NCBI GenBank assembly: GCA_014905635.1
Contig: JABVCE010000016.1
Span: 186,001-250,000 of the forward strand
Length of the DNA stretch: 64,000 nt
DNA from: Scenedesmus sp. PABB004
Taxonomy: Eukaryota
Direction of reading: 5' to 3'
Shown piece after piece: positions 1,268 to 6,633 of this stretch (position 1 is its first letter; each line of letters starts with the position of its first letter). Made by a program: the position numbers and the translations under genes. The notes under the pieces are model-generated. The model did no database searches. It saw only the letters and a program-made list of their open reading frames with translations, and was not told the origin of the DNA.

Positions 1268-4200
1268 ATGGCGGCCAAGAGCTTCACCGTGGGCGGCGTC
1301 GGGGCGGCGCCGGGCGTGGACGACGTCGCCCGCATCGCGCTGGGTGGGCAGCCGGTCGCGCTGGACGCGGCGGGCGCGGAGCGCATCAAGCGCGAGTCGC
1401 CGCCCCCCAAGGCGTTCGAGCCGGAGCCGGAGAGCCCCGCGCCGGCCGGCGGAGGCCCGGCGCTGAGCGCGCAGCAGGCCAGGGCGGTGCTGGCGACGCG
1501 GCTGATGAGCCTGATGGCCGGCAAGAGCGGCGTGCGGCTCGCCGTCGCTGACTTCCTCGCCGCCCTGCTCAACGCCGGCCTCCCGCCCGCGCTGCCCGCC
1601 GCCGACGACGCCTCCGCGCTGGGGGCGCTGGCGGACGCCTGCAAGGGCCTCGGCGGCCTTGCGGCCGACCCGGCGCGGCCGCTGGCCGCCGCGGCGGCGG
1701 CGGCCGGGCTGTCGCCGCCGGGGCTGAGCGCGGCCGAGCGCGCCGCGATCTCCGCGGGCGCGTCCGCCTCGGCGGGCGTCGCGTCGCTGGTCATCGTCGG
1801 CACGCGGCAGCTGCTCGGGGCGGTCACCGCGGTCGCGGCGCTCGCGTGCGAGGCGGCCGGCGCGCAGGTGCGCGCGCGCCCGCCGCCGCCGCGCCACGCA
1901 CCACGCGCCGCGCGCCCCGCCCTGACGCCACCGCCCGTCCCTCGGCGCGGCGCAGACCAAGGCCTTTGACGCGGAGCTGGTCGAGGCGCGCGGCTACAAG
2001 GGCGCCGTCGCCGCCGCGGACGAGCTGCGCAGCCTGCTCGACGGCTCGCGCGCCGCCGGCGGGCGCAAGGGCCTGCCGCTGGACGCGCAGGCGCCCTTCA
2101 GCAGCCTGCCGCAGGTCCGCCGGCGCGGGGCCCGCCGCCGCAAGCAGCGGCCGACCGCGGGCCCGGCGCGGCGCCGGCGCGCGGCACGCCCGCGCGCCTC
2201 ACGCCGCTGCGACCGCCGCCGCTGCGTGCTGCAGGCGCTGGGCGCCGCGGCGGACGCGGTCACTGTTGCCTACAACAACGTGCGGCCCGAGGTGCAGAGC
2301 GCGGCGCTGCCGGCCAAGGTGCGGCGGCCACGCGTGCGCGTGTGTGTGCCCGTGTGTGTGCGTTGCACGCTGCCCAGGGCTCGCGGCGCGGCCAGCGCGG
2401 GGACGAGTGAGCTTATCCTTCTGACACCTCTTGTGCGAGGGCCCGTCACACGGCTCGCTGAACGCAACGCAGCTTCCAACAACTGAGCGCCCCCGCCGCG
2501 ATCCCTGCGCGTGCTGCGTGTGCGTGCGCGTGCGCTGTTTGCGGGCTGACGTGCTGTGGCTGAGCTCGGTGTGCTGATGAACCAGCTTATCCTTCTGACA
2601 CCTCTTGTGCGAGGGCCTCTCACAGGGCCCGCTGAACGCAGCAAAGCGACTCGAAACCTGAACACCGCCAAGCAGCGTGCCCCTCCTGTCTGCGTGTGCG
2701 TGTCGTGTGCGCGGCATGCCGCCCAGCCGGCGGGTGCGGTGAGGAACCAGCTTATCCTTCTGACACCTCTTGTGCGAGGGCCTCTCACAGGGCTCGCTGA
2801 ACGCACCACAGCTTCCTTTTGCCTGAGCACCCCTGGCGTGTGTGTGGGTGTCTGTGGGAGCTGAGTTTGTGGCGGGCGGCTGGCTCACCCCGCCGCCTCT
2901 GCCGCCGCTGCCGCTGCCGCCGCAGGCGGGCGTCAGCGGCGCCGCGCCCAGCCCGACGCTGGCGCCCGCGCTCGTCGACGCTGCGCGCGCGCTGCTGGCC
3001 CTCGCGCACAGCTGCGTGAGCCGCGTGCACGTGCTCGCGGGCGCGTGCCCCTCCGCTGCGGCGGCGCTGCAGCAGCAGGCGGCCGCCGTCGCGGACGGCA
3101 TGCTGGCCGCCGCGCAGCAGCAGCTGGCGGCGGTGGGCGGGGAGCTGCTCGGCCCCGCCGGCGTGCAGTGGCGCGCCGGCGGGCCGGGCCCCGAGCTGCG
3201 CGCGGCACTCGCGGCGGCCGCGGCGCTGGACGCGCTGCAGACCGCGGCGGCGCTGGAGGGCCTCGCGGCCGTGGCGGTGCTGCGGCTCGCAGAGGTGCGA
3301 GCCTGGCGCGTCGGCGTGGGCCGCCCGGCCGCGCGGCCGGCGGCAGCGCCCCTCTGACGCGCGCCGCCGCGCCCGCCGCGCAGGGCCCCGCGCCGGAGCC
3401 AGCGCCCGCCGCGGACGCGGCGGCCGGCGAGCAGCAGCAGCAGCAGGACGGGCAGCAAAAGGGCAAGGGCGACAAGAAAAAGGACAAGAAGGCCCAAGGC
3501 CTCGGCCTGGGCAGGGGCACCGCCGTCGTGCGCGCGCACCTGGAGCGCGCGGTCGCGGCGGCCGCCGCCGCCGGCGCCGCGGTCGGGCCGTCCGGCACGC
3601 TGCAGGTGCGGCGGCCGGGCCGGGGCCGGCGCGGGCTGCGGCGCAGCCGCGGCGCGCGCGCGGCCGCCCACGCCCACGCCGCGCCGGCCGCGCAGGTGCT
3701 CGACGGCCAGCTGGGCGGCGCCGACGCCGTGCTCGGCAGCGCCGCGGGGCTGGACGCCGCGGCGGGCGTGCTCAGCGCGCACGAGGCGGCGGCGGTGCAG
3801 CTCGCGGATGACCTGCGCGCCGTGGTGGAGGCCAACCAGGCGACGCGCAAGCCCAAGGTGCGCGGGCGCTGCGCGGCGCCTCCCGCGCGCGCGCGCGCGG
3901 CCTGCACGCGCCCCGCGCCCCCCGCGCCGACCCCGCCGCTCGCGTCCCTGCCCAGGTCGCCAAGGGCGCGCGCGACTTTATGCCCGACCAGATGGCCATC
4001 CGTGAGGCGGCGTTCAACACCATCACCGGCGTGTTCAAGCGCCACGGTGCGCCGCCGCCGGCGGTCCCGCCGCTGGCGGCGCCGCGCCGCGCCGCGCCGC
4101 GCCGCGCCCGCTGTGCCTCGCCGCGCGCGGGAGGTGCATCACGACCCGCCGCCGCCGCCGCCGCCGCCGCCGCTGCCGCTGCCGCGTCGCTGCCGCGTAC

Positions 4201-6633
4201 GCGCGCGTGCAGGCGCGGTGTCGATTGACACGCCCGTGTTTGAGCTGCGCGAGACGCTGATGGGCAAGTATGGCGAGGACTCAAAGCTCATCTACGACCT
4301 CGCAGACCAGGCGCGCCGTCGTGTTTTGTGTCTCTGTGTGTTTGTGTTTGTGTTTGTTTGTTTGCAGGGGCCTCCTCGTCCTGTTGCACGCACGCGCGCG
4401 CGCGCACGCGGCCCACCGCCGCCGACGCGCCGCCGCGCGCCCGCCGCCGCCGCGCAGGGCGGCGAGCTGCTGAGCCTGCGCTACGACCTGACCGTGCCGT
4501 TTGCGCGCTACGTCGCGGTCAACGGCGTCGGCAACATCAAGCGCTACCACATCGGCAAGGTCTACCGCCGCGACCAGCCGCAGCTCGCGCGCGGCCGCTT
4601 CAGGCGCGCTGGCGGCTGCGCTCGCGCGCGCATTCATTTTTGCGCATGCGTGCGCGGGCGGGCGGGCGCGAGGGGCGAGGGGCGAGGGCAGGAGAGCCCG
4701 GGCGCCGCCGGCCGCGCCCTCGCTGCGGCCGCCGACCCGCCGACCGGCGTCGACCCGACCCGCGCGGACCCGCGCTGTGCAGGGAGTTTTTCCAGTGCGA
4801 CTTTGACATCGCGGGGTCGTACGCGGCGATGGTCCCGGACGCCGAGGTGCTCGCGGTGGTGGTGGAGATCCTGACGTCGCTGCGGCTGGGGCCCTTCACG
4901 GTCAAGCTCAACCACCGCCGCCTGCTCGACGCGATGCTCGCCATCGCGGGCGTGCCGCCCCAGAAGTTCAGGCCGATCTGCAGGCGAGCCCAGCGCGCCG
5001 GGGCCCTGGCTGGCGCGCTGGGGCGCGCTCGCGCGGCGGCGGCGGCGGCGGCGGCGGCGGGGCGGCTCGCGGCGGCGCGCACGCCCACCTGAACGCGCAC
5101 GCGCACGCGGCACACGCGCGCACGCGCCCCGCATCGCGCCGCGCAGCGCGATCGACAAGCTCGACAAGGAGCCCTGGCCGGTCGTGCGCGCGGAGATGGT
5201 GGAGGAGAAGGGACTCCCCGGGGACGTGGCCGACGCGATCGGGCAGTTCGTGGTGCTCAAGTGAGCGGCGGCGGCGCTGGGGTTCTGTTCTTGTGCCAGT
5301 CGCGCCGCTGCCGCGCGCTGCCGCTGCCGCGTTGCGCGCGTTGCGCTGCCGCGCTGCGTCGCCGCGGCGCCGCGCGGCGCGGCGCCAGCGGCCGACCCGC
5401 CGCGCCCGCGCCCGTGCGCCCGCGCCTTCCGCCGCCGCAGGGGCGCGCCGCGCGAGCTGCTCGCGGCGCTGACGGCGCCGGGGCACCCGCTCGCGGCGCA
5501 CCCCGACTCGGCGGCCGCGCTGTCGGAGCTCCGGAGCCTGTTCGACTTCCTCGACGCCCTCGGCGCGCTCGGGCCGATCAGCTTTGACCTCAGCCTCGCG
5601 CGCGGCCTCGACTACTACACCGGCGTCATCTACGAGGCCGTGCTCGACGGCGGCAACGTCGGCTCCATCGCCGCGGGTGCGGCACCCGCGGCGCGCCGCG
5701 CGACTGAGGCTGCGGCTCGCTGCGCGTGCGGCTGGCTGCATGGCGGCTCGGCCGCACGGCGAGGCGCCGCCGCTGACGACGCGCGCCGCTGGCCGCCGGC
5801 GCGCGTGTGTGTGTGCCGCCGCACAGGCGGGCGTTACGACAAGCTGGTGGGCATGTTCAGCGGCAAGGACGTGCCCGCGGTGGGCGTGTCGATCGGCATC
5901 GAGCGCGTGTTCACCATCATGGAGGCGCAGGTGGGTGGGCTCAACCCTGGGGCTGCGGGGCCTCTGGGGTTTAGGGTTCAGGGGTTGCGCGGCAGCAGGA
6001 GAAGAGCTGGGGGGCGGCGCGCTCGCGGCGGCATGACAGGCGCCACGCCGCCCGCCTGAGCCGCGCCCCACCGCCACGCCGCCGCGCCGCCGCAGGAGCG
6101 CGCGCGCGCCGCCGAGTCGGGCGCCGCGATCCGCGCGACGGCGACGCAGGTGCTGGTCGCGAGCATCGGCAACGGCATGCAGGTGCGCACCTTGCAGGCC
6201 GCGCGCCTGGGCGCCTGGGCGCCACGCGCCCTCCGCCGACGCCCGCGCGCCGCCGCGCGCGCAGGCCAAGCGCATGGCCGTCGCGTCGCGGCTGTGGGCC
6301 GCCGGCATCGCGGCCGAGTTTGGGTTCAAGCCCAACCCCAAGATGGGCGACCAGCTCGGCTACGCGCTGGAGCAGGGCATCCCCTTCCTGGTGCTGTTCG
6401 GCGAGGACGAGCTCGCCGCGGGCCAGGCGCGCCGCGGCGCGCGCGCGGCGCGGGCGGCGCTGCTGGCGCGGCGCGCGGGCGTGGTGCGCCCGCCGCGCGG
6501 CGGCCGACGCCGCGGCCGGCGGCGCGCGCGCGGCGCGCAGGTCAAGGTGAAGCACATGGCCGCGAAGACGGAGGAGACCGTGCCGCTGGAGGGGCTGGTC
6601 GACGAGCTGCGCCGCCTGCTGGCAGAGGCGTGA
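1268..6633 (+). CDS. HARS: Cytosolic histidyl-tRNA synthetase with N-terminal histidine ammonia-lyase-like domain; multi-exon
   Basis: [69 protein letters not shown] and [10 protein letters not shown] are reconstituted across GT-AG and GC-AG introns. The long Ala-rich N-terminal region resembles the HAL-like extension of plant cytosolic HisRS. Confidence 0.95.
2395..2490 (+). ncRNA. Intronic box C/D snoRNA-like RNA, copy 1 (degenerate C box)
   Basis: Terminal stem GCGC/GCGC, C-like box GGGACGA 2400-2406, D' CTGA 2421-2424, D CTGA 2483-2486. Core is near-identical to copies 2 and 3. Confidence 0.6.
2567..2667 (+). ncRNA. Intronic box C/D snoRNA-like RNA, copy 2
   Basis: Terminal stem CGGTGT/ACACCG, C box TGATGA 2575-2580, D' CTGA 2595-2598, D CTGA 2658-2661. 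Confidence 0.75.
2732..2832 (+). ncRNA. Intronic box C/D snoRNA-like RNA, copy 3
   Basis: Terminal stem GGGTGC/GCACCC, C box GTGAGGA 2739-2745, D' CTGA 2760-2763, D CTGA 2823-2826. Confidence 0.72.

Follow-up and report, generated by a model that had tools for sequence, protein, structure and literature searches.

The window, by which we mean the whole 64-kb stretch of algal DNA that was analysed, carries a HAL-like/HisRS fusion gene whose exon model spans positions 1268-6633. Exon 1 (1268-1867) gives a match to PF00221, and the exons at 4784-4981 and 5442-5675 give a match to PF13393. Taken jointly with the whole explanation that we favor below, the host is very probably a chlorophycean cytoplasmic HisRS gene with snoRNA units lying in sense orientation in its third intron. 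The predicted ends of this intron (GT at 2319-2320 and AG at 2924-2925) are consistent with the in-frame exon model. The features of the intron are as follows.

2319..2925, + strand: predicted host intron 3 (607 nt, GT..AG), from the exon model of the HAL-like/HisRS fusion gene
2395..2490, + strand: unit 1 (u1), predicted snR48/SnoR1-type box C/D snoRNA gene; RF00345, 32.6 bits, E 6.1e-05
2395-2398/2487-2490, + strand: u1 terminal stem, GCGC/GCGC, 4 bp
2400-2406, + strand: u1 C box variant, GGGACGA
2419-2434, + strand: u1 guide, followed by D' GCGA at 2435-2438
2435-2458, + strand: u1 D'-C' hairpin, with C'-like CGCTGA at 2456-2461
2467-2482, + strand: u1 variable segment, followed by box D CTGA at 2483-2486
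2491..2566, + strand: spacer u1-u2, 76 nt, TG/CG-rich; the flanks of the units are mutually unalignable
2567..2667, + strand: unit 2 (u2), predicted snR48/SnoR1-type box C/D snoRNA gene; RF00345, 27.1 bits, E 0.0018
2567-2572/2662-2667, + strand: u2 terminal stem, CGGTGT/ACACCG, 6 bp
2574-2580, + strand: u2 canonical C box, CTGATGA
2593-2608, + strand: u2 guide, followed by D' GCGA at 2609-2612
2609-2632, + strand: u2 D'-C' hairpin, with C'-like CGCTGA at 2630-2635
2641-2657, + strand: u2 variable segment, followed by box D CTGA at 2658-2661
2668..2731, + strand: spacer u2-u3, 64 nt; the flanks of the units are mutually unalignable
2732..2832, + strand: unit 3 (u3), predicted snR48/SnoR1-type box C/D snoRNA gene; RF00345, 32.3 bits, E 7.2e-05
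2732-2737/2827-2832, + strand: u3 terminal stem, GGGTGC/GCACCC, 6 bp
2739-2745, + strand: u3 C box variant, GTGAGGA
2758-2773, + strand: u3 guide, followed by D' GCGA at 2774-2777
2774-2797, + strand: u3 D'-C' hairpin, with C'-like CGCTGA at 2795-2800
2806-2822, + strand: u3 variable segment, followed by box D CTGA at 2823-2826

A preliminary description of this DNA had reported three units of ~100 nt within the intron, and every motif string that it listed was found in place. Its picture of three box C/D snoRNA genes arranged in tandem, on the same strand and within one intron, with one common D'-side guide, holds, as does its observation that the units are of lower GC than their surroundings (0.60-0.69, vs 0.75-0.93 in the flanking exons and introns). 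In each unit a C box lies near the 5' end, a D box near the 3' end, and a short terminal stem encloses both. Box D is CTGA in all three. The C box that had been claimed for every unit is canonical in u2 only; compared with RUGAUGA, the variant in u3 departs at one position and that in u1 at two, with the GA dinucleotides kept in 3/3 units. A three-way alignment gives a mean column identity of 89%, and the invariant core runs from AGCTTATCC through CGCTGAACGCA. As had been noted, the 16-17 nt that precede the terminal CTGA differ between copies.

Each unit was also said to have its own closing stem in which pairing is kept despite sequence change, and this was borne out: three of the six terminal-stem columns are changed on both sides. 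One of the three pairs of the inner hairpin is compensatory (G-C in u1; C-G in u2 and u3), and for the terminal stems and D'-C' hairpin together, changes on both sides keep pairing in 4/14 pairs. Stem cells are paired in 92.9% of cases, vs 21-50% when the partner is slid, and the stem-pairing score was reached by 16/500 shuffles, a weak result from only three sequences. Folding stability exceeded that of shuffles in none of the three units (z +1.24, -0.77 and -0.23); this is common among box C/D RNAs and lends the assignment no support.

The element that carries the assignment is a 16-nt sequence, TTCTGACACCTCTTGT, which occurs once per unit directly 5' of GCGA. Allowing three or fewer mismatches, its core has three copies in the 64 kb vs 0.03 expected, and 0/100 shuffles gave three. 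TTCTGACACCTCTTGT pairs 16/16 with eukaryotic LSU rRNA, up to the GCGA. Its antisense partner was found in an LSU rRNA fragment (L043), which Rfam scores as LSU_rRNA_eukarya at 946 bits. The target was assessed on rRNA of other sources, and its conservation across loci is partly by construction, the target sequence itself having been used to retrieve them. With a 25-mer that contains this sequence, 57 metagenome loci were obtained, and complete LSU, SSU and 5.8S rRNA genes were present in all six of those examined with Rfam. A search for rRNA in prokaryote genome contigs gave at least 115 stretches, which together with eight viral ones make up the 123 loci listed; rRNA context was seen in one of the 123, L043. 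The eight matches in viral contigs were due to chance, and 0/8 had any Rfam family.

The guide had been taken to be AGCTTATCCTT, with a CTGA D' box at its end. This reading fails, as the CTGA in question lies inside the 16-nt antisense element and is followed by a degenerate D'. Judged from the sequence, the real D' box is this GCGA, directly 3' of the guide; D' boxes of an unusual kind are typical for the snoR1 family. Counting five nucleotides upstream from it falls on a G, as it does with the AUGA of the snoR1 consensus. Each unit has an antisense element of at least 10 nt directly upstream of D/D' with position 5 opposite the nucleotide predicted to be modified. When a guide contains a CTGA that looks like the consensus, boxes can be wrongly assigned. 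Accessory pairing with the 460 nt of LSU rRNA around the site was sought for the pre-guide, D'-C' and D-side segments, and none was significant after nine tests. The best accessory duplex joined the u2/u3 pre-guide CCAGCUUAU to GUGAGCUGG, ~156 nt downstream (-14.3 kcal/mol), a score reached by 11/300 and 21/300 shuffles. A pairing of UUAUCC and CCAG with rRNA GGATAACTGG was seen by eye and set aside, duplexfold not having chosen it.

All three units align end to end with the RF00345 model of snoR1 (model positions 1-93 of 93), with the highest identity over GCUU..UUCUGACACCUCUUGU. In the guide core they do not differ from the snoR1 consensus, and the model aligns the internal CUGA as a conserved part of the guide. 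E-values are 6.1e-05 to 0.0018 on 651 nt and 0.006-0.007 on 64 kb; at the latter scale the only Rfam matches at E <=0.05 are snoR1 on these units, with u2 absent. The scores (32.6, 32.3 and 27.1 bits) do not reach the RF00345 gathering score of 49 bits, a threshold tuned on land-plant sequences. Homology searches for snoRNAs between land plants and green algae mostly fail (PMC5122169), and the Ostreococcus supplement holds no SnoR1 or snR48 entry.

The family so matched is well described. Yeast snR48 is reported to guide modification of G2791 and G2793 in helix 88 of 25S rRNA through its D' guide, and its unusual D', which is without CUGA, to let a single guide methylate two G's one nucleotide apart (PMC5389607). 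For Arabidopsis SnoR1, PMC8053127 calls it the snR48 orthologue, assigns it G2792, considers G2794 to be probably guided by the same RNA and leaves box C' unassigned. AtsnoR1 and snR48 are treated as serving one conserved LSU modification, snR48 being RF00471 in CL00066 (PMC3511168). For Neurospora, Nc CD8 is listed with a D' guide and with the homologues snR48 and U60 (PMC2780460). In the algal units we likewise find a D'-side guide directed at the LSU site in helix 88, with equivalence of numbering inferred from the model alignment, a non-consensus D' (GCGA) and a poorly defined, CGCTGA-like C'. What is directly observed comprises the motifs and stems, the perfect complementarity and the match to the family; the units are very probably three tandem paralogues of the snR48/SnoR1/U60 (SNORD60) box C/D snoRNA. 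The suggestion that the shared guide might be an orphan is overturned by its perfect antisense match to LSU rRNA at the snR48/SnoR1/U60 site and by the match of the units to Rfam snoR1; this is a known family in a known algal/plant intronic-cluster layout, not an orphan RNA family.

Arabidopsis SnoR1 (RF00345, clan CL00066) is the closest comparison. It shares with the algal units the full-length model alignment, the guide core UUCUGACACCUCUUGU and a non-CUGA D' after the guide (AUGA in the consensus, GCGA in the alga); at ~93 nt, this box C/D RNA has been assigned a target on the D' side alone (25S G2792, probably also G2794). The algal units differ from it in scoring only 27-33 bits, in the sequences of the D'-C' hairpin and of the segment before box D, in the stretch from box C to the guide (AGCUUAUCC vs GCUUuuau in the consensus) and in their genomic setting, with three isoforms sharing a single intron of a protein gene. 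Yeast snR48, for its part, stands as an independent, non-intronic gene. It resembles the algal units in its D'-side guide to the same LSU region (helix 88, domain V) and in a D' without CUGA, although its D' is a conserved 6-nt AUGUUA (PMC5389607) and that of the alga is GCGA(GG). Human U60/SNORD60 and Nc CD8 are named in PMC2780460 as snR48 homologues that use one D' guide for the equivalent LSU G; Nc CD8 is marked there as 'IR', taken to mean intergenic, unlike the algal units. The layout has its parallel in Chlamydomonas and plants, for which PMC7671301 describes intronic, sense-strand clusters of snoRNA isoforms arising by local duplication and processed from a polycistronic precursor. Tandem isoforms in one protein-gene intron, as here, are reported from Chen et al. 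(2008, Genetics 179:21) by the same source.

Expression, processing and methylation by u1-u3 are inferred, as follows. The intron would be spliced from the Pol II host transcript, the units would be separated within the spacers, and exonucleases would trim the pieces until halted at ends protected by the terminal stem and by the kink-turn of boxes C and D, bound by the core proteins Snu13, Nop58, Nop56 and fibrillarin, leaving RNAs of ~95-100 nt. The u1-u2 spacer is presumed to be a site of endonucleolytic separation and exonucleolytic trimming, and the u2-u3 spacer would have a similar processing role. The u1-u2 spacer carries four of the five differences from near-identical metagenome DNA contigs, which are short and come from three DNA runs. 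Each RNA would pair TTCTGACACCTCTTGT with LSU rRNA ACAAGAGGTGTCAGAA, and fibrillarin at the degenerate C'/D' (GCGA, hairpin and CGCTGA) would 2'-O-methylate the G opposite the fifth guide nucleotide upstream of D'. This would be the first G of ACAAG (ACAAGAGG), equivalent to G2791 of yeast and G2792 of Arabidopsis; as in yeast, a second methylation may fall on the G two positions further along. Both D' (GCGA) and C' (CGCTGA) are degenerate.

Other readings of the cluster were weighed against this one. That the internal CTGA is the D' box after all, with AGCTTATCCTT as a shared guide to an unspecified, possibly non-rRNA, target, could draw on the consensus D' sequence of CTGA, on the invariance of AGCTTATCC in the three units and on the recurrence of the AGCTTATCCTT segment against AAGGATTGGCT(C) in 31-32 of 56 rDNA loci. 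The duplex with AAGGATTGGCT, however, contains an internal mismatch and a G-U pair, and shuffles reached the observed count for AGCTTATCCTT against the 56 rDNA loci in 26/40 (u1) and 28/40 (u2) cases at 11 or more pairs and in 6/40 (u1) and 39/40 (u2) at 12 or more. The same CTGA also sits inside a 16/16 antisense match to a documented methylation site, and the snoR1 model places it within the conserved guide, and we hold this reading to be very unlikely. Tandem repetition by itself would speak for a repeat, either a dispersed one (SINE or MITE) or a tandem one arisen by chance, rather than for RNA genes, but the three copies in intron 3 are the only ones in the 64 kb, and one specific snoRNA family accounts for their boxes, stems and rRNA antisense element, making such an origin extremely improbable. 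It is rather unlikely that some copies are decaying duplicates, with u2 the working gene and u1 and perhaps u3 poorly assembled or unstable. The C boxes of u1 and u3 are off RUGAUGA at two and one positions, respectively, and the u1 stem has only 4 bp; on the other hand, the box C GA dinucleotides are kept in 3/3 units, and all three units preserve the guide, D', hairpin and C'-like region, either unchanged or through compensation, while the spacers have diverged beyond alignment. Conservation of the units alongside diverged spacers argues for selection on every copy, although gene conversion could mimic this pattern. Given the non-consensus C boxes of u1 and u3 and the 4-bp stem of u1, not every copy need be functional.

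The variable segments could also be real, distinct guides gained after tandem duplication on top of the common D' guide, directed, for instance, at snRNAs, tRNAs, mRNAs or lineage-specific rRNA sites and giving up to four methylation sites. Their size (16-17 nt) and their place next to box D are guide-like, and a near-invariant scaffold around a differing stretch would fit diversification. For u3, anchored duplexes of at least 11 pairs on rDNA numbered 181 vs a shuffle mean of 75.7, a count that 0/60 shuffles reached. This excess stems from a few conserved purine-rich rRNA sites, for example of the ACGAGAGGAACC and GCAAGACGAAGC type, that are recounted in many loci. Each has a mismatch or G-U pairs, and the nucleotide to be methylated is itself in a G-U pair; at the GCGAAAGGAAATTG site that nucleotide is in an A-U pair, but one mismatch and two G-U pairs occur at other positions. 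The u1 and u2 segments did no better than shuffles, which reached the observed count against the 56 rDNA loci (at least 11 pairs) in 14/60 and 15/60 cases, and the best recurrent D-side duplex spans 14 positions with one mismatch and two G-U pairs. In the 64-kb window, the only complementary sites that reached 14 pairs were the segments' own antisense. The accounts of this family in Arabidopsis and Neurospora assign it a D' target only (PMC8053127, PMC2780460). No convincing target of the variable segments emerged from the 56 rDNA loci (anchored duplexes vs shuffled guides) or from the window, and we regard distinct guides as unlikely. The fuller form of the idea, that after triplication the D' guide was kept under strong constraint and the D-side segments became three different working guides with lineage-specific targets in variable rRNA regions or outside rRNA, is quite unlikely; if true, it would mean that the birth of new methylation specificities has been caught inside one intron. 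Under the snR48/SnoR1/U60 assignment, the variable 16-17 nt most likely have no target and would serve to keep the length constant, as a spacer whose sequence has drifted from copy to copy.

The main value of the result is one of annotation, and it opens no new question. A deeply conserved family, snR48/SnoR1/U60, is placed in a chlorophycean alga; in that group, a published survey could detect hardly any homologues of the snoRNAs of land plants (PMC5122169). A comparison of the three isoforms shows constraint on the guide, the D'/C' motif and the stems (kept by compensation), and drift in the unused D-side segment. Five columns of the variable 16-17 nt are invariant in the three units (C, AGC and C), which speaks against full drift.

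Three box C/D snoRNA genes (u1, u2 and u3) are carried in a single intron (2319-2925) of a lyase-HisRS fusion gene, within a window that is extremely GC-rich throughout. The intron begins with GT and ends with AG, and the exons on either side are open and in frame.

Host gene and snoRNA units (closing stems included in unit coordinates)
1268-6633, + strand: host gene, in which an N-terminal lyase-like domain (PF00221, the family of histidine ammonia-lyase) precedes a complete HisRS in the same frame
2395-2490, + strand: u1, stem GCGC/GCGC
2567-2667, + strand: u2, stem CGGTGT/ACACCG
2732-2832, + strand: u3, stem GGGTGC/GCACCC

The alignment of the units has a mean column identity of 89%, with a block that is invariant from AGCTTATCC through CGCTGAACGCA; the copies diverge in the 16-17 nt upstream of the terminal CTGA, and their flanks and spacers do not align with one another. 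GC content is 0.60-0.69 in the units versus 0.75-0.93 in the surroundings. All strings listed in the preliminary description, including each unit's own closing stem, were recovered from the window sequence. When the terminal stem and the two-part D'-C' hairpin (14 pairs) were scored, 92.9% of cells were paired, falling to 21-50% with the partners slid, and 4 of the 14 pairs had changed on both sides. The observed pairing score was matched by 16/500 shuffles and, with three sequences, the support from pairing and covariation is suggestive, not strong.

No match was obtained at Rfam gathering thresholds across the whole window. In E-value mode on 2300-2950, u1, u3 and u2 all aligned end to end with RF00345 snoR1 (clan CL00066), at 32.6, 32.3 and 27.1 bits respectively (E = 6.1e-05, 7.2e-05 and 0.0018; gathering score 49); over the full 64 kb, u1 and u3 gave the only matches to any Rfam family at E ≤0.05. 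By predicted function and sequence core, the units are members of the snR48/SnoR1/U60 family. The strongest stretch of the snoR1 alignment is GCUU..UUCUGACACCUCUUGU, and therefore the internal CUGA, which the preliminary description had named as the D' box, is placed inside the conserved guide of the family. The guide anchored on that CTGA (AGCTTATCCTT, 13 nt with upstream bases) was scanned for anchored duplexes with at most one mismatch and at most two G-U pairs in 56 rDNA loci (357,836 bases). The shuffle comparison lent it no support, nor did its recurrent site, AAGGATTGGCT(C) in 31-32 loci, which has one internal mismatch and one G-U pair.

Duplexes of the CTGA-anchored guide (unit; minimum pairs; observed; shuffle mean; shuffles reaching observed)
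u1; 11; 78; 96.7; 26/40
u1; 12; 45; 23.3; 6/40
u2; 11; 55; 70.2; 28/40
u2; 12; 2; 16.3; 39/40

The shared D' guide is instead the 16-mer TTCTGACACCTCTTGT, of which each unit has exactly one copy and the rest of the window none, with up to three mismatches allowed (expected count 0.03; three copies in 0/100 shuffles). Searching prokaryote genome contigs for this 16-mer gave at least 115 stretches, nearly all chance matches. The context of 123 loci, the 115 listed and 8 chance matches in viral contigs, was inspected, and one locus (L043) reads ...ACAAGAGGTGTCAGAAaagttaccatagggataactggcttgtgg..., pairs with the guide at 16/16 Watson-Crick positions and is identified by Rfam as LSU_rRNA_eukarya (946 bits, model positions 1891-3399). 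A 25-mer from this fragment retrieved 57 metagenome loci on 56 contigs with conserved LSU context, a number that does not measure how widely the target is conserved since the loci were retrieved by the target sequence itself; complete LSU, SSU and 5.8S genes were present in 6/6 of these loci examined by Rfam. The target is thus, from the metagenome loci, normal eukaryotic LSU sequence. Directly 3' of the guide the algal units have GCGA, whereas the snoR1 consensus has AUGA; counting five guide nucleotides upstream from GCGA gives a C, and its partner in the rRNA is the first G of ACAAG. Together with the hairpin and CGCTGA, GCGA makes up a C'/D' motif whose degeneracy is usual in this family.

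Yeast snR48 is reported to use a single D'-side guide to direct Gm2791 and Gm2793 of 25S (helix 88, domain V), and is described as lacking a recognisable CUGA D' and as having an unusual C'/D' motif that permits two-site methylation (PMC5389607). Arabidopsis SnoR1, its apparent orthologue, is assigned to G2792, with G2794 probably modified by the same D' guide, and is listed without an assigned box C' (PMC8053127). AtsnoR1 and snR48 (CL00066) are tabulated as one conserved LSU modification (PMC3511168), and Neurospora Nc CD8, whose guide is on the D' side, is given snR48 and U60 as homologues (PMC2780460). The 16/16 antisense match, the snoR1 alignment and the known snR48/SnoR1 site together displace the earlier suggestion of an orphan guide.

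The genomic arrangement of the cluster is of an already known kind, intronic or polycistronic clusters with several isoforms having been described as usual in Chlamydomonas and plants, where a polycistronic precursor is cleaved and trimmed exonucleolytically up to the assembled snoRNP (PMC7671301). The u1-u3 precursor would be processed by the same cleavage and trimming, after which fibrillarin bound at C'/D' would methylate the LSU G.

The variable D-side segments were scanned in the same manner, against the same loci and with shuffled controls.

Duplexes of the D-side segments (columns as before)
u1; 11; 34; 31.2; 14/60
u1; 12; 6; 11.0; 43/60
u2; 11; 54; 42.3; 15/60
u2; 12; 14; 14.1; 22/60
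u3; 11; 181; 75.7; 0/60
u3; 12; 66; 24.6; 2/60
u3; 13; 16; 7.2; 4/60

The D' guide, as positive control, gave 83 sites of at least 13 pairs, a result by construction. The u3 excess is not independent evidence of a target, because a few conserved purine-rich rRNA sites are recounted in each locus. Of its example sites, ACGAGAGGAACC recurs in about 40 loci and GCGAAAGGAAATTG in 7, with GCAAGACGAAGC-type sites as a third kind; every one contains a mismatch or G-U pairs, and the predicted methylated position is G-U at ACGAGAGGAACC and the GCAAGACGAAGC-type sites and A-U at GCGAAAGGAAATTG. Within the window, no D-side complementarity of at least 14 pairs was found beyond each segment's own antisense, and extra pairing to a 460-nt stretch of LSU surrounding the site was not above shuffles (best reached by 11/300 and 21/300). 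Because five columns (C, AGC, C) are invariant among u1-u3, and because targets may lie elsewhere in the genome, a second function of these segments keeps a low probability. Our reading is that the D-side segment is an unused spacer whose length is constrained, because no target stood out in the 56 rDNA loci or the window and because the targets assigned to the Arabidopsis SnoR1 family member (PMC8053127) and to Neurospora Nc CD8 (PMC2780460) are, in those accounts, on the D' side only.

At 2636-2647 of u2, from C' into the D-side segment, GAACGCAGCAAA has sense (not antisense) identity to 12-13 nt of rDNA; such words occur in 12 rDNA loci, six per variant (e.g. L124, L126, L132 and L149), and correspond to the conserved motif of 5.8S rRNA. 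All units have GAACGCA, seven of these 12 nt, in common, and the identity may be due to chance.

Nearly identical DNA covering 2487-2837 is present in short contigs of three freshwater-metagenome runs from two studies; its depth is low and, as DNA, it has no bearing on expression. Five differences are listed, four of them in the u1-u2 spacer (2538 T>C; 2549 A>G; 2556 G>C; a 5-nt insertion behind 2558). In one run, 2629 C>T changes u2 GGGCCCGCTGA to GGGCTCGCTGA, as in u1 and u3.

The intron with the snoRNAs interrupts the lyase-like portion of the host gene. Exon 1 (1268-1867) matches PF00221, aromatic amino acid lyase (E = 4.6e-16), the downstream exons match PF13393, HisRS (E = 1.2e-07 and 6.2e-04), and the exon model between the two is uninterrupted by stop codons. 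A protein search with exon 1 returned 15 proteins at E ≤1e-3, eight of which, all from Chlorophyceae-type algae, combine PF00221 and PF13393: these include a Tetradesmus obliquus 'Histidine--tRNA ligase, cytoplasmic' (65% identity) and proteins of Chlamydomonas incerta, C. schloesseri, Pleodorina and Sanguina. Judged by protein similarity, the host organism is a chlorophycean alga, with Tetradesmus the closest among the 15 matches, and the fusion is a feature common to the lineage. AGASASAG in exon 1 sits at what we take to be the position of the lyase family's Ala-Ser-Gly cofactor triad, and the lyase-like domain may be non-catalytic. Among the HisRS exons, the intron at 4983-5146, after ...ATCTGCAG, has a GC start (GC-AG) as judged by reading frame only. 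Another intron contains a TG-rich microsatellite (4321-4365; TGTTTG/TGTG runs), and similar TG/CG runs occur in the snoRNA spacers and at the intron ends (2339-2360 and 2839-2860).
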